Of a stretch of DNA of 64,000 nt, positions 2,390 to 52,758 are shown one piece after another. This DNA comes from a virus (taxonomy: Duplodnaviria > Caudoviricetes): IMG/VR virus record IMGVR_UViG_3300021400_000143, positions 16,616 through 80,615 of that record. One strand, written 5' to 3'. A program made the translations under genes and the position numbers. Under the pieces are notes generated by a model. That model was not told the DNA's origin. It made no database searches and worked only from the letters and a program-made list of their open reading frames with translations. Each line of letters starts with the position of its first letter. The first letter of the stretch is position 1.

Positions 2390-2824
2390 CGCCCTGTTTA
2401 CACCTTTGCGGCTGCATCCCTTATCATTAAAATACTCGCATGTGTGAAATCTTCACTTACAACTTACAATGCACGCCCTTATTGTCGTTTGCTTTCTTAT
2501 TGCCGCAAAAACGTAAATTTACGCCCTGTTTGTTTTGTTCCAACATGCCAAACAAAACCGAAGTTTTGCGAGTGTTTCACTCTAAATTTACGCCGTTTGC
2601 GTACTAAATAAAGAATTTAAGGTCGCGCGCCCTTTGCGCCTTATTGCTACCTTATTTTCGCGCCCTTTGCGCTATCCTTACCTTTCCGCGCCCTTTGTGC
2701 CCTATTTGGGCAAAGGTACATTTTAACGCCTTAAAACGCCCTTTGTTAGTGGGTGCAAAAGTTTTTGCAACCTATGCCAGCCGCGCGTTATTCACATAAT
2801 AACGGCTACATTTTGCACCCTTTG
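2390..2824. repeat. Non-coding array of CGCCCTTTG-like direct repeats
   Basis: Exact copies at 2628, 2661, 2689, 2737; variants at 2390, 2474, 2522, 2591, 2816. Confidence 0.75.
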
Positions 2825-2838
2825 CGCGTGTTACTCGC

Positions 2839-3492
2839 TTACTTTGTGCCCTTAATTAGCGCATACTTTGCGAGTACTTCGTTACGTGTGAATGTGTTTG
2901 CAAATTCACCAAATACGGCACTAACTGCTGCAAAAGCTTTGTTATAAATCTTTTCATCCTTAGCAGCTTTCTTTTCATCCTTTGCAGCCTGTTTTTCCGC
3001 TTTTTCACTTGCAACCAGTGTCACCTTTGCAACCTTTGCGAAAGCTGCAAAATATGCGCTAATAGTGCAGGCAATAGGTGTGAAAATTACATTGTTTCCG
3101 TTTTCATCTTTGCACACTTCGCGCCCTTTGTTATCAACTGCAACGGCAGCAGATACGCCGCAAATATCCATGTAGTCGGTGTGTGTGACACACTCATTTT
3201 TAAGTGTTTGCATAGTGCAAAATCTACCAGCATAGTCCTTCACGAACAAATCCAAGTTAAAAGCATAGCGACCAGTGTGCAAGGACTTCACTACCTTTGC
3301 AACCGCTGCAATGTTTTCACGCAGTAAGTTGTCGCAGTTTTCAATCTTCGAAAAGTCACCCTTTGCAGCTTTATTCAGCTGATTTACGATAACAAACGGA
3401 CTGGTGAAAATACCCTTAACTTCGTTTTTTGCATTCTTGAAAGTGGTGTTAAATTCTTTTGCACTCACTTTTGAAAAATTCTTTGTTGCCAT
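2839..3492 (-). CDS. Hypothetical protein, 217 aa, Ala/Lys-rich C-terminus
   Basis: Long ORF with an AT-rich start and a -7 box upstream. Confidence 0.75.
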   Translation of the reverse strand: MATKNFSKVSAKEFNTTFKNAKNEVKGIFTSPFVIVNQLNKAAKGDFSKIENCDNLLRENIAAVAKVVKSLHTGRYAFNLDLFVKDYAGRFCTMQTLKNECVTHTDYMDICGVSAAVAVDNKGREVCKDENGNNVIFTPIACTISAYFAAFAKVAKVTLVASEKAEKQAAKDEKKAAKDEKIYNKAFAAVSAVFGEFANTFTRNEVLAKYALIKGTK

Positions 3493-3499
3493 AATGTTT

Positions 3500-4380
3500 G
3501 AATGTTTTTAAATTGTTAATACTATATTTTATTAAATGTTTTAATAAGTTAATCAATCAGCACATTTTCAAAATCACGATGCAAAGGTAGTGAAAATTTA
3601 GTTATTATATGATATATTTAAAAAAAAGTGAGTTTTTTTTGAAATATATTTGTTTTTAGTGACAAAATACCCTATTTTGTAAAGTAGAGATTGCAATTTA
3701 ACATTTTTATACATTTTTCTATGTTATTTATTTCTTATTTTGTGTATTAAATTACATATTTTTACACAAATTGCACAGTTTTGCTCTTTTTGTGCAGATT
3801 TTAAATAACATCTATTTATTTAGTGTTTTATTTACACTATCTTTTATTATATATAAGGTATATTATAAAAGTTATAACTATAAATAAAAATAGTTATAAC
3901 ATAATATATATATTTTATTACTTAATTACTTAATTAGTTATATTATTATCTATTATTGTCTATATTGTAATATTAGTTATATATATTTTTTATATGCTTA
4001 TAACTTAATAATATTTAGTTATTAGTTATATGTGCAAATATACGTATAAATCAAAAAGTAGTGTAAAGATGAAAAATGAATAAAAGAGTCGTTTTTGTTA
4101 GTACGTGAAAAGATGAATAAACAAGCTATAAATAAATGTGTTTTTTTTGTTATTTTTTGGGCTGTTTTTGTTATGTATTTTTAGATGTTCATTTGTGAAA
4201 ATATAAAACGCATAAAAGCGACCCAAAAAGCGCAAAACGCTGGAGGCGGGGGGGGAGTAAAGCCCGAAAGCGGTTATATGGTGCAAACGACTCATTTTTA
4301 AAAAAATAAAATTTAAAAAAACGAAATTTTCAAAAAAGAGAAAATTTAAAAATCAAAAAAAAATAAAAAATCGAAAAAAG
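3500..4380. other. Extremely AT-rich non-coding gap with a G8 island (4248-4255) followed by A-tracts; candidate packaging site, terminus or origin
   Basis: Only 7 G+C in 3841-3900; no credible ORF; separates divergent genes. Confidence 0.5.
3582..3589 (-). promoter_or_regulatory. -7 box TACCTTTG(CA) upstream of the leftward operon
   Basis: TAnnTTTG about 90 nt upstream of the 3492 start; -33 box not seen. Confidence 0.5.
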
Positions 4381-4411
4381 TTTGTAGATGGTAAAAAAGT
4401 TTTTATATTTG
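4381..4411 (+). promoter_or_regulatory. Bacteroidetes sigma-A-type promoter TTTG-N19-TATATTTG
   Basis: Both boxes at consensus spacing, 30 nt before ATG 4442. Confidence 0.75.
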
Positions 4412-4441
4412 CATAGAATTTGAAACGTTATTAAATCAGTT

Positions 4442-4831
4442 ATGGAAATAGTATTAAGTTTAGAGCGTCTGTTGCAAGACGAGAGTTTTAGGACTAAGTC
4501 GGGTGATGTAAAGGTACGTCATTCGTTTGTTGGTAAGACGCAGGGTCAGTATCCTCGTTTAGTCAAGGTAGATATATTCAATGATACTGTATGGCAGGGT
4601 GTGTCTTGGAAAGTTGGTGAAACTTACGATGTCAGTTTAGATGCTGATAGTAGGGAGTACAATGGTCGTTGGTACACGTCTTTGACTGCTTGGAGGGTTG
4701 GTTTGCATAATAGCCAGAATAGTCAGAGTGGTGGTTATGCTAATAATGGCAATAATAGTCAGCAATCTTCCGCACAGGTGTCTCAACCTTCTTCTGGTGG
4801 TGGTAGTAGTGATGAAAATGTACCGTTTTGA
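4442..4831 (+). CDS. DUF3127-like OB-fold ssDNA-binding protein
   Basis: SREYNGRWYTSLTAWRV signature, S/Q/N/G linker, acidic tail DENVPF. Confidence 0.8.
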   Translation: MEIVLSLERLLQDESFRTKSGDVKVRHSFVGKTQGQYPRLVKVDIFNDTVWQGVSWKVGETYDVSLDADSREYNGRWYTSLTAWRVGLHNSQNSQSGGYANNGNNSQQSSAQVSQPSSGGGSSDENVPF

Positions 4832-4847
4832 TTGAATTGTTAAATTT

Positions 4848-4919
4848 GCGTTTTAAGGTGTGTTTAATCTTTGGGTGGTACAAGTTACCACAAATGCAGT
4901 TAAATTGCCTTAGAAACGC
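4848..4919 (+). repeat. Dispersed ~70-nt structured element, copy 1
   Basis: GCGTTTTAAG...GTGGTACAAGTTACCAC...CTTAGAAACGC; aligns with 40047-40115 and 52459-52528. Confidence 0.75.
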
Positions 4920-4935: not shown

Positions 4936-5337
4936 ATGGCTGATTTCACTTTAGTGGGGTTTATAAGGGCTATAAAATACATGGATGATTCGGTTTTGGT
5001 GTTCATAGATGAATACAAAAACGGTTATAAGAAGTCGAATGGTGAGTATGTTCAAGACAGGTATATTTCTTGGAGATGTATATTTAAGTCATATTTCAAG
5101 GGTTATATAAGCAAGCATTTTGGTAACAGGATGCTGGTTCAAGTCAAGGGAGAGGTATTTCCTTATGCGATAGAGCATGACAAGATGGTTGAGGGTGTTT
5201 CTGTTATAGGTCAGACGATAAATGTTTTCTCTTATCCGAGGGCGTCTGCGAGCAGGGAGTTAAAAGCCATAAGAGATAGTCAGTTTCATGTTGATGGAAC
5301 TCCAGATTTAGATGATTTTAAAGAAGAGGATTTTTAG
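4936..5337 (+). CDS. SSB-like OB-fold protein with acidic tail
   Basis: SSB-like pattern (FTLVG...GE...W.C.F...VQVKGEV), tail DLDDFKEEDF; ATG 4936 preferred over TTG 4828. Confidence 0.6.
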   Translation: MADFTLVGFIRAIKYMDDSVLVFIDEYKNGYKKSNGEYVQDRYISWRCIFKSYFKGYISKHFGNRMLVQVKGEVFPYAIEHDKMVEGVSVIGQTINVFSYPRASASRELKAIRDSQFHVDGTPDLDDFKEEDF

Positions 5338-17299: not shown

Positions 17300-17995
17300 T
17301 TAAATCCAGAAAATACCGTCGATGTAGGAACGATTCTTAGCGAGAACGTAGTTTGGCAGTGGCTGCATACGAGCAATCCAAGCCTCCTTGTCGTGTACGG
17401 TGCTAATAGAGTAGTTGGCATTTTCGATACCATAACCCTCTGTTGGCATCAAGTCACGGTCTGCTTCAATGAACGTGTTAGGGTTTGGAACAAGCACGTT
17501 TACAGAATTTGTTGGAGTGTCAAGTGCTGCGTCAGCGGCTGCATCAGCCTCAACAAGAATGTCACCTGCTGACAATGCAGAACCAAGAGCTGCTGCAACT
17601 GTTACTGAAAATTCCTGTGTGTCTGTGTCGTAAGTAACACCAGTTACTTTAACATAAGCACCCTTTGTTGTAGCGGTAGTAGGTGCTTTCATAAGGTACA
17701 TTCCTACCTCAGGAGCATCGCTATAACCGTCACCCTTAATCTTAATCGTTGTTGCAGAGCTAATTGCGCTTGCGCTTACCTCAAACGAACGGAAGATAAG
17801 GCATCCCTCTGCTGGTGTGTACTGAACCAACTGTGCAGCCCACAAGTGTCCGAAACCCTTGTTAGGGTTAAGGATTGTGCCGCCAAGCAACACATTCTTG
17901 CGAGATTCACCGTTGCTGTCTTTTACCCACACCCACTTACCACCACGTACCTTGCGTGATGTTTCGTAGAAATAAGATAAATTAGTTACTTGCAT
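17300..17995 (-). CDS. Putative head decoration/cement protein
   Basis: 231 aa, Ala/Thr-rich beta protein between scaffold and capsid. Confidence 0.55.
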   Translation of the reverse strand: MQVTNLSYFYETSRKVRGGKWVWVKDSNGESRKNVLLGGTILNPNKGFGHLWAAQLVQYTPAEGCLIFRSFEVSASAISSATTIKIKGDGYSDAPEVGMYLMKAPTTATTKGAYVKVTGVTYDTDTQEFSVTVAAALGSALSAGDILVEADAAADAALDTPTNSVNVLVPNPNTFIEADRDLMPTEGYGIENANYSISTVHDKEAWIARMQPLPNYVLAKNRSYIDGIFWI

Positions 17996-26400: not shown

Positions 26401-29400
26401 AACTGAAAGACTTGTTTGTTAGGGAACTGACTACAATAGTTAGAGGTATCTTTAACGAGTTGGTTTCAAGTCACCCAACAAGCAAGGTAGGAGAGTGGTT
26501 TCAGCAAGGTTTCAACGGTCACGGCACAAAGATTTGGTACGACCAAGATACAGGCTGGAACATGGAACTTGATACATTGACTGTTAGGCGTATCATGTAT
26601 ATCTTCGAGCTTGTCATTCAGAAGATACGTTCAGTTGGTGGTATCTTGATTGTCAGTGCTGCAAACGGCAAAATCAAGGAAGTTCAGAAAGTTTGCCGAT
26701 ACGCGAATGGTGCTTATCAGTATTACTATAAAATCAAGTTCGAGGACACGAATACTTTTGTGCGCCACGACTTGATGCGCTGCCAGCGTTGGAATAATGG
26801 CAGATATGATGATGTAACGAAAGAAGATGATGCAGAATTGCCTGACGCAAGAGCAATGCAGTATTATTGGGTGGAAGTTGCTTACCCAGATTCCGCTGCC
26901 TTCAACTACCCACCTCTTGACACTCCCGAAGATTTCATAGTATGCGATGATAGTTGGACTCCTATTCAAGAAGGTGGAAATCTTGTTGACGCAGAGGTGT
27001 CAAACGCATACGATATACTCGTGCCACGAAGTGAGTTCGGTAAGACCGTAGAAGTGATTGACCCAACAACACAAGAAACGATTATACTTCCTGCCGATAC
27101 CGAACCACAAGTGGGCGACGATTGCGTGTTGATGGGAAATACCCAATACACCAAGCGTCAGAACTACATCTATATCAGTGCTACTGAGGATGGTGTGCCA
27201 CGAATAGATGTGATGGACGGCTGTAGCACAAAGGGTGACGGTGGAAATCTGCGTTGTAGGTTAGGCTGTTTGGATGGTATCAACGACTCCTATTGGGGAT
27301 TGGAACAACCAAGCGGCTATGGCCTGTATTCAGATAACGCATGGCTTAAAGGAAAGTTCATCGTTAGAATTGGCGACAGGGATAGAGACGTAAGCACGAT
27401 GTTTGAGGTGCTTGACGGCATGATACGTTCTTCCGTTTCCTCTCTGCGTGAAGATACGATAGGTGGAGAGGGTTGTATCAGTAATAACGTGTTTACCGAT
27501 GGACTTGACAAGTGGGGTATCTACGGTGAAGGTCAGTTATTAACTGATGGGACGAAAGCACTCCACGATGGAATAAACCTTCTTGCTTTGTTTGGGTTTA
27601 CCGAATATGCAAAACTCGTCGAGGATAACGGAACGTTTGCGGTGGAAATAAAAGGCTCTGCGAACACCCCTCATGGCATCATCCAGCTGAACGCCAACAT
27701 GCACGATGTACCAACATTTGAAACAAATAACGGTGCCATCGTTCCTCGTACTTTTGCTGTATCGTTCTATGCAAGGTCGGCAGAAGTAGGCGGAACTAAC
27801 GTGGTTGTCGAAATTGGCGATGCGCCTCCATTCACTATTGCCGTTGCGCAAAGCGAGAAATTCAGAAAGTACGTCCATACGCTCGATTTAACGTCTGTAG
27901 GCGACTTTTCCATCTATACCTATGGCGGCGCAGTTCAAGTGCGTGGTATCGTTGTGAGCGTCAATATTGACGAAGCAATGATTGACAGGCTTGTGTCAAG
28001 GATTGAGCAAATTCCAGACTCAATTACTGGCATTGTAGAGGCATTTACGCTAAATCAGACAACATGCAAATATGAACTATCTGCGTTTACATCTTTCAAG
28101 GCAGCGTATGGTAAATGGCAAACGTCTGTTACTGATAATTTCAGAAACACTAACTCGAAGATAGACCAACTATCCGATTCGATTACAAGCAGCGTCAAAG
28201 CACTCGTTCCTATCAACGAGAACGACTACATCGTTGACCCTGCGTTCAGTCGTGAGACATCTACACCACAAGACCCAAACAACCCGTTCGTGCATATATC
28301 GAAGTGGAATATCACAGAGAACGATTCAAGCAAGCATTTGACTATTAACACTTCTGGAGGTGAGAACTATGTCGATATTCTGAATAACGATGCGTCAAAT
28401 CCAGTCGGTTTCTATCCTGCATTAAAGAATATTCCAAGTGCCCAAGGGCGACCAAATAGCAAAGCCGTTGATGTAAGCATCGCCGTGCGCTGTGTAAGCA
28501 ATGGAACGCTCGTTGTCTATCAGGACAATGGAAGTGGAGGAACGACTGAAATCTATCGCAAAAGCCTTGCTGCATCCACCACTTACGAGTATGTGCGTTT
28601 CAGTCCAGCGTGGCGATACGGAAACATCTACATCGGTGTGTTAGGTGTTAATGCACAAATGTATATCAGCAGCGTTTGCATGGCTGACAACGGGAAGGCT
28701 GTGATGGCTGAAATGAGTTCGAGAATCACGCAGACACAAGAAAAAATTACATTAGCCGTACAAACCGAAGTCCAGAACGCAACTGGAGGATTCAACACTC
28801 GCATTTCCACGTTAGAGCAAACAGACAGTTCCTTCACGTTCAAGATTGATAGTCTGATGAACACTATTTTCTCGAACATTAACGCTCCATTCGATTATTC
28901 AGCATCATCCGATGAATTGACGCAGCAAGATTTGGCTATTTGTGTTAGGAAGATTTCTGATTCATCGGGCGATTACTTGCATATCGACGATTCTGATGAA
29001 AACGGCATTACGGTTTCATTCGGTCTTTCTGATTTGGCGAATGATTCAGATATGGAGCCTGTAAAAGTCCGTATTCGCGGAAAAGCTGATGATGTAACCA
29101 CTCTTCGTATTTACTACGGCTCTGGAAGTAACGACTACATAGATATTGCTTCTGACTTTGCTGGCGATGCCATTACAGAACATGAATATACCATCAACTT
29201 TGTAATAGATTACGGAGTGGAGATTTTCATATACGGTGGTGTTTTCGACATCTATGGTATTTACGGTAAACCAAATACAATCACTTCTCCTGTGTCGGTT
29301 TTAAAACTGACGCAAAAGTATTTTGAAGCGTATGTAAGTGAGCATTACATTGATAGCGACACATTAACAGAAACATTGAGGGGCTATGCTCCAAAAAACT

Positions 29401-39718: not shown

Positions 39719-40042
39719 ATGGAAAGAGAAAAACTTTTGCAAGAATATGAGACTACGCTTAATAGTCTCATAGAAAAAACTCGATTTGTGTATTCAGAAG
39801 AATTTTACAAACTTGACGAGTTTGAGAAGCAGAAATACACAAAAGACAAGATGGCAACAGAAGGACACCTTAACACATTAAGCACTTTGTTATGGGCAAA
39901 AGTTCCTCAACTAAGTAGCGTGACCGATTTGTTTGCGCTTGGTATTCTTGGCTCGATGTTTGGTAATAACTGGAGCAATCCATCTATGCTTAATGCACCA
40001 AAATTAGAAGGGGAAAAACTCGAAGAAGTTAAAATCGAATAA
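39719..40042 (+). CDS. Helical hypothetical protein
   Basis: 107-aa ORF, last of the rightward block. Confidence 0.65.
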   Translation: MEREKLLQEYETTLNSLIEKTRFVYSEEFYKLDEFEKQKYTKDKMATEGHLNTLSTLLWAKVPQLSSVTDLFALGILGSMFGNNWSNPSMLNAPKLEGEKLEEVKIE

Positions 40043-40046
40043 AATT

Positions 40047-40115
40047 CGTTTTAAGCACGTTTAAATTCAAAGGTAATAACTTGTACTATTCGATAGATAG
40101 AAGCCGTTACAACGC
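40047..40115 (-). repeat. Dispersed ~70-nt structured element, copy 2 (diverged)
   Basis: Minus strand GCGTTGTAA...ATAGTACAAGTTATTAC...CTTAAAACG. Confidence 0.65.
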
Positions 40116-41217: not shown

Positions 41218-41778
41218 TTATAATTCTTCTATGATAAAGCGAAACGTGTTTTTGTTTTTCTTTTGCTCTGATTTTGCCCAAGAGAGGGTTGAAAGCGGTA
41301 TGTTTAATTTTTTAGAAGCCGCTGTTAATGATGGAAATATCTCATTATACAAACCGTCTCTTGATGAAATCAAAACTTTTAAAGTGTTTTTACCAACAGT
41401 ATTCGGGTTGTTTACGTTTTCAAGTCTTGTTGCCCACCTAAGATTAGTAACCAAATTATTTACTTTATCTCCATCTATATGGTCAACTTCTTTTTTACCA
41501 TGAATATTTGGAAGAAAAGCTTCTGCAACCAATCTATGAATATACTTTTCTTTTGATGTTTTTTTATTTCCATTACTTAAACATACAAATAAATACTTAT
41601 TATCCTTTACTCTTGGTTTTAAAATTTTTTCTTCGCACATTACTGTGCAAAAACCACGGGTGACTTTATGTGACAAAACTTTTACTCTTCCATAATTGCT
41701 AACTTGGTAATAACCTTTATAGCCAGCAATATCTCGCCAAACCTCGTTAGTCATATCAAAAGTTTTTTCTTCTTCCAT
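41218..41778 (-). CDS. NUMOD4-HNH homing endonuclease
   Basis: EVWRDIAGYKGYYQVSNYGRV, HRLVAEAF, VDHIDGDKVNN...NLRW. Confidence 0.9.
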   Translation of the reverse strand: MEEEKTFDMTNEVWRDIAGYKGYYQVSNYGRVKVLSHKVTRGFCTVMCEEKILKPRVKDNKYLFVCLSNGNKKTSKEKYIHRLVAEAFLPNIHGKKEVDHIDGDKVNNLVTNLRWATRLENVNNPNTVGKNTLKVLISSRDGLYNEIFPSLTAASKKLNIPLSTLSWAKSEQKKNKNTFRFIIEEL

Positions 41779-51457: not shown

Positions 51458-52243
51458 TTAAAAAAGTGAAAGTTGTGCTTGCTCGTTCTTGATTCTCTTG
51501 CAAGCAATGTCGTAGTATTCCTTTGAGAGTTCAAAGCCGATGAAGTGCCGTTTCTCTTTGATACACGCTATTGCAGTTGTGCCGCTGCCCATGCAGTTGT
51601 CGAGCACGGTGTCGCCCTCGTTGGTGTAGGTCAGAACGAGATAGCGCAACAGGTCAACGGGCTTTTGGGTAGGATGAAGACGCTCGGAATCTCTGTCAAA
51701 AGCGATAAGATTGATAGGGAATCGACTACCATCGCTGATTGTTAGAGTTCCACCATCTTGCGCCTTGCATACACCGCGAACCATTGCCGTGTCTTTCTTT
51801 TGCGCTCCACTCTTGCAGACGTATGGCTCAAAGCCTTGTCGCATTTGCGGATTGTAGTTGAGATAGATGCCGCGTTTGCTCTCGGTGGTTGCCGCTTGAC
51901 CGAATACGCAGATGTCCTCGGTTATCTTCAATGGCTGATGATGTGCGTTGAGAAAGTTCGTGCCGCTATCCTTTTGCCATATCCAATTATACTTGTAGTC
52001 GTTGACATTCGACATAATCAATGCCGAAGTAAACGGCTGCTGGCTGAACAATACGATTGCCGCTGTCGGCTTTACGATGCGTCGGTACTGTTCCCATAGC
52101 TTGTCGAAAGGTATCACGCTATCCCATGCGCAGGCGGTTGTCCCATACGGCAAATCGCAAATCACCGCGTCAATCGTTCCGTCGGGAATGTTTTTCATTC
52201 CTTCAAGGCAATCCGTGTTATATATCGTGTCGAGTTCAATCAT
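51458..52243 (-). CDS. Amino-DNA methyltransferase (N6/N4, beta class)
   Basis: DLPY, HPTQKP, VLDNCMGSGTT. Confidence 0.9.
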   Translation of the reverse strand: MIELDTIYNTDCLEGMKNIPDGTIDAVICDLPYGTTACAWDSVIPFDKLWEQYRRIVKPTAAIVLFSQQPFTSALIMSNVNDYKYNWIWQKDSGTNFLNAHHQPLKITEDICVFGQAATTESKRGIYLNYNPQMRQGFEPYVCKSGAQKKDTAMVRGVCKAQDGGTLTISDGSRFPINLIAFDRDSERLHPTQKPVDLLRYLVLTYTNEGDTVLDNCMGSGTTAIACIKEKRHFIGFELSKEYYDIACKRIKNEQAQLSLF

Positions 52244-52267: not shown

Positions 52268-52423
52268 TTATCTATTTGATAAATTCTTTACTTTAAACTT
52301 ATAGCAAGCATGGCAATAATCATTCGTTGGTGTTTCTAAGCCACCATAATTGCATATAGATTGCCCGAAAACAGTGCAACCATAATACATACACTCGTAA
52401 CAAAGATATTGTATTTTACTCAT
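52268..52423 (-). CDS. Cys-rich micro-protein, 51 aa (MSKIQYLCYECMYYGC...CHACYKF...)
   Basis: Translated by hand; six Cys including two CxxC. Confidence 0.5.
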   Translation of the reverse strand: MSKIQYLCYECMYYGCTVFGQSICNYGGLETPTNDYCHACYKFKVKNLSNR

Positions 52424-52458
52424 AATATTCAAAACATTCGTTTTAAGGTATCTGTCGT

Positions 52459-52528
52459 GCGTTCTAAGCGCATTTGTATATTCGTGTGGTAACTTGTACC
52501 ACTTTGAAAATAAAACCGCTTAAAACGC
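52459..52528 (-). repeat. Dispersed ~70-nt structured element, copy 3
   Basis: Minus strand GCGTTTTAAG...GTGGTACAAGTTACCAC...CTTAGAACGC, starting right after the 52531 stop. Confidence 0.75.
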
Positions 52529-52530
52529 AT

Positions 52531-52758
52531 TTATTCATTATTACCATATTCAAATTCAATTAGCATATCTATCGTGTGTTTCGCTTTTTCCAAATCTTCC
52601 CTACCACCTTTATCACGAAATCTTGTTACGTATTTTATGATTGTTTGTTGGCAAGGGTCTAAATGATTCTTCATTGCGTACTCCATTGGTTGTATTGCAA
52701 GTTTGGAATAATGATTTCCACCAACTTGACTTTTTAATACACTTTTATCGTTTCCCAT
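52531..52758 (-). CDS. DUF3310-family protein
   Basis: QVGGNHY...IQP.EY...IIKYVTR...KGGREDLEKA. Confidence 0.8.
   Translation of the reverse strand: MGNDKSVLKSQVGGNHYSKLAIQPMEYAMKNHLDPCQQTIIKYVTRFRDKGGREDLEKAKHTIDMLIEFEYGNNE

Follow-up and report, generated by a model that had tools for sequence, protein, structure and literature searches.

The window analyzed here spans 64,000 nucleotides (16616-80615) of one 80,615-bp virus record that has direct terminal repeats and is rated complete. The phage to which it belongs (phage W) encodes a terminase, a portal protein, a primase-helicase, a sliding clamp, an SSB and several DNA methyltransferases. Domain searches detected no sigma factor, RNA polymerase, ParB, Y1 transposase or tyrosine integrase in this phage, and no tRNA or tmRNA was found in the window. 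Phage W is present in public DNA runs that are labeled mostly as bovine gut metagenomes, and it turned up in no public RNA run. Bacteroidales hosts do without Shine-Dalgarno-led initiation and have unusual promoters, and to our knowledge almost nothing has been established on gene regulation in their phages. The SSB operon of phage W has a promoter at 4381-4411 (TTTG, a 20-nt spacer and TAtaTTTG) that is of the Bacteroidetes -33/-7 type, the consensus of which is named in PMC6847099. Phased A-tracts lie directly upstream of this promoter. A 0.9-kb AT-rich non-coding region between divergent genes (3500-4440), with the repeated words TAGTTAT/TTATAAC and a G-run at ~4250, is a candidate origin or early control region.

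The SSB gene (4442-4831, plus strand; phrog_4932, E 3.6e-9) is followed by the first of three dispersed copies of a hairpin-forming element. The first-pass annotation had placed these copies just after stop codons, each 2-30 nt behind an upstream gene on the same strand, and its coordinates and strands proved exact: c1 at 4848-4919 (plus) begins 16 nt after the SSB stop codon, and c2 at 40047-40115 (minus) and c3 at 52459-52528 (minus) follow their upstream genes by 30 and 2 nt. In c1 an outer stem (4848-4859/4907-4919) and a middle stem (4862-4868/4899-4905) lead to an apex hairpin at 4875-4891. The next gene (4936-5337, plus) starts 17 nt after c1, encodes a 133-aa protein of no known family and, lacking a promoter, can be expressed only by read-through across c1. 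The decayed copy c2, with its apex at 40073-40089 carrying four changes and with outer arms that pair poorly, closes a leftward gene block at a convergent junction. Three genes upstream of it, a free-standing HNH endonuclease with a NUMOD4 domain is encoded at 41218-41778 on the minus strand, as assigned by Pfam on the identical gene in L193. Small genes neighboring the element gave nothing in Pfam or PHROG. The third copy, c3, is a 29-bp rod hairpin with its apex at 52486-52502 and lies behind the 75-aa DUF3310 gene (52531-52758, minus). Directly after c3, ahead of a methyltransferase gene (51458-52243), there is a consensus Bacteroidetes promoter at 52401-52433 on the minus strand (TTTG, 21 nt, TAtcTTTG), and a solitary extra 3' arm word of the element (52439-52447, minus) sits between c3 and the -33 box. 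Public gene calls place no gene between the DUF3310 and methyltransferase genes. A 54-codon Cys-rich open frame with two CxxC pairs (52268-52432, minus), which is absent from these calls, overlaps the promoter and has its first ATG inside the promoter spacer; the frame and the promoter cannot both be used as described here.

A fourth, possibly relic, site had been suspected near 2739 on the minus strand and turned out to be real. At 2712-2745 (minus), downstream of the gene at 2839-3492 (minus), two arm words of the element abut without an apex and form a 14-bp hairpin (z -3.0). Beside this "empty" form the region 2560-2860, read on the minus strand, is G+C-rich and holds several copies of a ~14-nt word of the type GCGCAAAGGGCGCG / GGGCACAAAGGGCGCG, which looks, from its sequence, like an array of binding sites.

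Within the window the 10-nt core is found exactly three times, where ~0.1-0.3 exact matches are expected from length and composition, and the 9-nt arm word occurs five times (~0.6 expected), every time at an element or at the relic. The copies c1 and c3 make up the longest inverted-repeat pair of the window, and in the whole 80,615-bp genome there is no further copy of the 17-nt apex even at four mismatches. Both c1 and c3 fold into rods: above a lower stem there is a middle stem, which varies, and then an apical hairpin of 6 bp and 5 nt. The minimum free energies are -24.4 kcal/mol for c1 (25 pairs, z -3.5) and -28.3 kcal/mol for c3 (29 pairs, z -6.3), and none of 200 shuffles was as good in either case; the z of c3 was -4.5 in a test with its flanks shuffled. 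The earlier statement that the inner pairing is largely kept in the diverged copy has to be restricted to the apex of c2, where the changes are one G-C to A-U double change, one G-U and one A-C, because c2 as a whole folds no better than its shuffles (z -0.3). Scored with the covariance model R1, of which both are seed members, c1 reaches 79.5 and c2 55.5 bits. The absence of a U-tail, also claimed before, holds for c1 and c3. Behind c2 there is a weak hairpin of 5 bp plus extension with a U-run (40031-40052, minus; -4.4 kcal/mol, z -1.4), partly built from the 3' arm word of c2, which is a possible leftover terminator at the convergent junction. A promoter hidden in the 5' arm was considered as well: c1 has TTTG, 18 nt and a -7 box with 5/6 matches, the other copies have no properly spaced boxes, and the match was judged to be chance. 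No kissing partner for the loop was found in phage W except the copies themselves.

For the search of homologs, exact-word scans of IMG/VR, JGI metagenomes and GTDB genomes were followed by synteny, a mismatch search and the covariance model R1, which added diverged copies. Close relatives obtained by exact protein look-up were uninformative since their c2 and c3 sequences are identical to those of phage W. A 90%-identical relative, L100, has c1 in place. The remaining homologs, ~25 further copies at 2-5 per genome, come from unrelated small phages (27-29 kb) of ruminant-gut metagenomes that have almost no genes in common with phage W. Among them, the L003 contig and C104, a contig of the Bacteroidales MAG G001, hold 4-5 copies each, the L066/L089 contig at least two, and L206 three. 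In 401 Bacteroidales genomes, matches at one mismatch or less were no commoner than those of a reversed control word and the true ones were found only on the phage contig C104, so the element belongs to phages and a repeat of the host was rejected. Most exact 17-mer matches in metagenomes and genomes were coding (glmS-type and other genes), a gapped scan with the 5' arm plus core returned only coding chance matches, and a CRISPR-repeat mimic was dismissed, as no locus with arrayed matches appeared in any collection. On the unrelated contigs L059 (~1840-1880, plus) and L120 (~2850-2885, minus), one of which is from a Saccharibacteria MAG, the exact 17-nt apex tops ordinary-looking terminators with extra G-C pairs and a U-run; either these tops converged by chance or the top of the hairpin has spread more widely.

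The three copies are thus true members of a family of ~70-90-base hairpin-forming elements that rumen Bacteroidales phages carry at gene-block borders. The apex of 17 nt is nearly invariant, with GUGGUA and UACCAC pairing around the loop CAAGU, and its most conserved part is UACAAGUUA. It is nested between a T-rich 5' arm and an A-rich 3' arm, which are usually complementary. In G002, a complete relative, all four sites have a similarly diverged centre with TGTAT in common, and these concerted changes speak for a co-evolving reader or for gene conversion. The apex may resemble the 3' minor domain of 16S rRNA, the DnaA box and the tRNA T-loop, possible likenesses on which no conclusion here is based. 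It had been predicted that no named family would match, and this was borne out: no Rfam 15 family reached its gathering score in the window, a comparison of four homolog loci with Rfam at E up to 5 gave only sub-threshold noise (microRNA, snoRNA and CRISPR-DR), and no paper with the sequence was found in the literature. As far as Rfam 15 and the literature show, the family is undescribed. The outcomes that had been named in advance as speaking against it were an Rfam match, a lack of homologs or of covariation, and scores no better than controls; none of these occurred, since homologs exist, the arms covary (see below) and the scores exceed those of the controls.

All copies are intergenic, and three kinds of places recur. 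One is directly after the SSB gene, in phage W and L100 (c1) and, with an unrelated SSB family, in C104, L116 and L184. Another is after a major structural gene of ~196 aa and its ordinary terminator. More than 30 relatives of this structural gene have only the terminator there, which makes the element an addition at this place. The last is before consensus Bacteroidetes promoters; in C104, copies precede three of the four plus-strand promoters. The apex starts 58-60 nt before the -33 TTTG in three C104 copies, L004/L003:12140, L003:3991 and L089, at 69 nt in c3 and at ~100 in L201. The copies c1 and c2, and those behind SSB and structural genes, have no promoter downstream. The description of the element as placed just after stop codons is therefore half of the picture: copies are equally often at a fixed distance before a promoter, and c3 does both. 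About 20 of 23 copies point along the flanking genes, which agrees with the earlier proposal that the element would be on the mRNA. Yet no fewer than three intact copies (L089, L072 and C104:13195) run against the direction of the genes, as do two weak matches, and in some copies the arms are not complementary. Reading the element purely as mRNA is therefore insecure, and a DNA-level reading has to be kept.

Several further observations concern C104. After its 195-aa structural gene (17455-17608; L186 2455-2608) the terminator and the 3' arm block are kept and the apex is replaced by an AT-rich stretch. The only minus-strand gene of this otherwise all-plus 29-kb contig (10893-11279; L185), with 128 aa and no family, immediately precedes the copy that stands ahead of the terminase operon, where a regulator gene would be expected. 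An A-tract array similar to that upstream of the SSB promoter of phage W stands ahead of an early-type promoter at 27891.

The conservation of pairing was examined on an unfitted, plain MAFFT alignment of 23 copies with a symmetric two-helix model. In this alignment 70.8% of the cells pair, compared with 40-49% when the partners are slid by 1-3 columns. The covariation score of 0.182 (0.122 in shuffled alignments) was reached by none of 500 shuffles, with 15 pairs changed on both sides, and the arms thus covary. There are at least four unrelated arm pairs, each of them self-complementary. In five strains (four plus L100) all differences from c1 keep or add pairs and leave the apex untouched; the variants 4856A>G, 4859T>C and 4906T>C turn A-U into G-U and U-G into C-G and create a new G-C. 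The apex-sense strand folds better in 18 of 19 forward copies, and apex variants show G-U rather than A-C. At one orthologous site, C104:20522 and L003:3991, the apex stem has grown to 13-15 bp with three G-U pairs and is followed by U5, while the loop varies; here the apex is a canonical intrinsic terminator, in the sense direction only.

Other copies are less regular. Mixed-type arms in several promoter-proximal copies do not pair, and the z values of L004, C104:11475, c2 and L126 are near 0. In the L206 lineage (L206:1024/5868) another sequence stands in place of the 5' half of the apex stem, and the loop and the 3' half are kept, a pattern that looks more like a sequence motif than a helix. 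The excess of G-U on the sense strand (50 vs 15 in native copies, 59 vs 37 in shuffles) is partly compositional, the elements being G+T-rich, and part of the wobble tally comes from a search in which the 5' stem was fixed. A comparison of self- with cross-arm pairing was set aside as confounded by neighboring terminator halves and shared arm types.

The first-pass annotation had named three candidates for the role of the element, namely an RNA processing or stability signal, a protein binding site and a REP-like element, and its interpretation is partly supported. The element probably ends, cuts or protects messages at gene-block borders. A more specific mechanism, which we favor tentatively and give somewhat less than an even chance, is that of an RNA hairpin, placed at message borders, by which the transcript is attenuated, processed or stabilized and whose tip docks a protein. 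It is suggested by the location at terminator places, by the long sense-strand helix that is kept and by the true terminator that has arisen at one site. The element would mark the end of one expression unit and the start of the next, after a stop codon or terminator and before a promoter (c3) or a start codon (c1). Read-through RNA of the upstream gene would fold into a 25-30-bp rod that damps further read-through, or is cut by a double-strand RNase such as RNase III, or both, and the cut would leave a protective 3' hairpin. By this route an upstream message that is needed in abundance (SSB, major structural protein) may be uncoupled from the genes that follow, and the next promoter may be shielded, with the conserved tip acting as the docking site of a putative protein. 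The copy c1 is not a full stop, as the gene behind it has no promoter; it must let polymerase or ribosomes through, and attenuation and/or endonucleolytic processing is therefore favored. The rods are long enough for RNase III. The RNase III domain was scored in Bacteroides thetaiotaomicron, used in a control panel, and was not found in MAG G001, an incomplete assembly in which a missing hit does not amount to absence. We infer action as RNA, cleavage or stabilization, and protein binding from these patterns, and several points count against the RNA mechanism: a second 3' hairpin is not obviously needed behind the ordinary terminator of the structural gene, RNase III does not need a conserved tip, and there are the inverted copies, the unpaired mixed arms, the loss of half a stem in L206 and the partly compositional G-U excess. 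An extension of the same idea, which is speculative and in our opinion unlikely, would have a single trans-acting factor dock at the tip in otherwise unrelated Bacteroidales phages; it would be either a host protein that the phages hijack or a very small phage protein that evolves fast. In that case the hairpins would act at operon borders as switches that need this protein, terminating or processing the message conditionally and so timing the change from early to late expression, and the changed centre of G002 would be a switch of specificity.

The main rival, which we regard as rather unlikely but as deserving weight, is that the element is read as double-stranded DNA: a dimeric regulator of phage or host would bind the 17-bp palindrome as an operator or upstream activating site and control the adjacent promoter or block elongating polymerase, and the A/T-tract arms would give curvature and an UP-like element. 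The spacing of 58-60 bp between apex and -33 box, kept in both orientations, would fit such a site, as would the apex sequence that is retained where pairing is lost (C104:13195, L206:1024/5868) and the arms of different types within one copy. The four similarly diverged centres of G002 would be expected if the sites co-evolve with a phage-encoded reader. Yet the copies that have no promoter behind them are left unexplained, and long complementary arms with pair-preserving changes are unnecessary for a 17-bp site. The spacing itself, since it differs in c3 and L201, may reflect shared ancestry of one phage group. No DNA-binding protein common to phage W and C104 was detectable; the only proteins that phage W has in common with C104 or G002 are a methyltransferase and a RecE-like exonuclease. 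A prophage repressor is unlikely as reader because ParB, sigma-70 and a tyrosine integrase were not found in phage W or G002. The placements could also be the product of spread alone, by a selfish or recombination-spread palindromic cassette (MITE/REP-like or PeSL-like) on which any regulatory effect is secondary. This we consider quite improbable as the main explanation, and it can coexist with a function as RNA or DNA. It would account for a near-identical apex in phages with almost no genes in common, for the structural-gene relatives that have the terminator only and for the two orientations, and the chimeric arms, the apex-less forms (window 2712-2745 and C104 after the 195-aa gene) and the solitary arm words resemble products of recombination between copies. 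A precedent exists in PeSLs, composite terminator/promoter repeats that have been implicated in indels (PMC2839356, PMC4122927). Nevertheless, no target-site duplication is seen at c1, c3, L072 or C104:3113, no Y1 transposase was found in phage W or G002, and there are only three copies in 80 kb. The orthologous copy c1 has been kept with pair-preserving changes in five strains, and unrelated phages carry the element at matching places (after SSB), a hint that position is under selection.

Two further functions seem very improbable to us. In one, the apical pentaloop hairpin would load a phage factor on the transcribing polymerase, as in nut- or put-like antitermination, and later terminators would be read through. 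A stem of 5-6 bp with a 5-nt loop, on the sense strand and just after the stop of an early gene, is about the size of lambda boxB, and nutR of lambda lies after cro. There is one form of the apex per genome, with a variant of its own in G002, as nutL and nutR share one form within each lambdoid phage. Against this, most copies precede promoters or follow terminators, and RNA started at those promoters always lacks the element; any boxA-like 5' arm would be sequestered by the 3' arm, and neither a boxA nor an N-like protein could be identified. In the other, which we rate about equally low, the hairpin would act in single-stranded DNA as an ssi/sso-like signal for lagging-strand priming, read on the displaced or lagging template strand. 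Plasmid single-strand origins are likewise long imperfect hairpins that are specific to one strand and have a small conserved block at the apex, and the strands of c1 as against c2 and c3 may be compatible with forks leaving the AT-rich region 3500-4400; but the direction of the genes accounts for the strands just as well, an all-plus-strand genome contains inverted copies, the replication proteins of phage W and C104 are unrelated, and the association with promoters has no link to priming.

With respect to known systems, the element shares features with several and differs from each. Intrinsic terminators have a stable G+C-rich hairpin, which is present here, and a U-tract 3' of the stem, which c1 and c3 lack; among all copies it occurs only in the derived C104:20522 and L003:3991. 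The RNase III processing sites of T7 are likewise two-stem hairpins of 60-80 nt with an internal loop, similar to one another, co-oriented and situated between genes of polycistronic messages, and they leave a stabilizing 3' hairpin. Near-continuous double-stranded RNA of ~20 bp or more with an internal loop, intergenic and in the sense direction, is found in c1 and c3 and not in c2 or the mixed-arm copies. The T7 sites differ in that they have no invariant tip, are not known to be inverted and were reportedly proven by cleavage mapping (by Dunn and Studier). REP/BIME elements of enterobacteria are also imperfect palindromes just after stop codons, with mosaics of two inverted arms around a central protein-binding block and roles at the RNA and DNA levels. 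Unlike the three copies in phage W, REPs are chromosomal, number hundreds of copies, have a 5' GTAG and go with a RAYT transposase; no PF01797 domain was found in phage W or G002. The arms could serve as the inverted repeats of a MITE, but no flanking direct repeat was seen at the four copies listed above for target-site duplications. Stoperators of cluster A mycobacteriophages and other phage operator palindromes are short, conserved intergenic sites near stops or promoters, orientation-biased and with a phage-specific consensus; stoperators are double-stranded DNA sites of a prophage repressor, in contrast to an element with long covarying arms in phages (W and G002) without integrase. The promoter-early stem-loop (PeSL) cassettes of T4-type phages (PMC2839356, PMC4122927) are small composite units of a stem-loop and a host-type promoter, repeated at gene-block borders of a phage and associated with differences in presence and absence. 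This layout is seen in c3, three C104 copies, L004, L003:12140, L003:3991 and L089; c1, c2 and the copies behind SSB or structural genes lack it. In PeSLs the stem-loop is a short terminator confined to a close pair of phages, whereas here the 17-nt apex is common to unrelated phages, the arms are long, many copies have no promoter and most have no U-tract.

In kind, the family joins the known border repeats of phages (PeSLs, T7 RNase III sites) and REP/BIME mosaics, and its unusual trait is a single 17-nt tip found in unrelated phages whose hosts belong to one order. Should the element be no more than a terminator-like hairpin that recombination has spread, it would be an ordinary though useful feature for annotation. 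As a compact and portable marker of operon borders in several unrelated rumen phages it offers a handle for mapping phage transcription units, it is a candidate insulator or processing part for the genetic engineering of Bacteroides, and the conserved tip can serve as bait for the host or phage protein that reads the element. If a shared trans-acting factor does read the tip, the element would represent a border code shared by rumen phages, for which there is no described counterpart.
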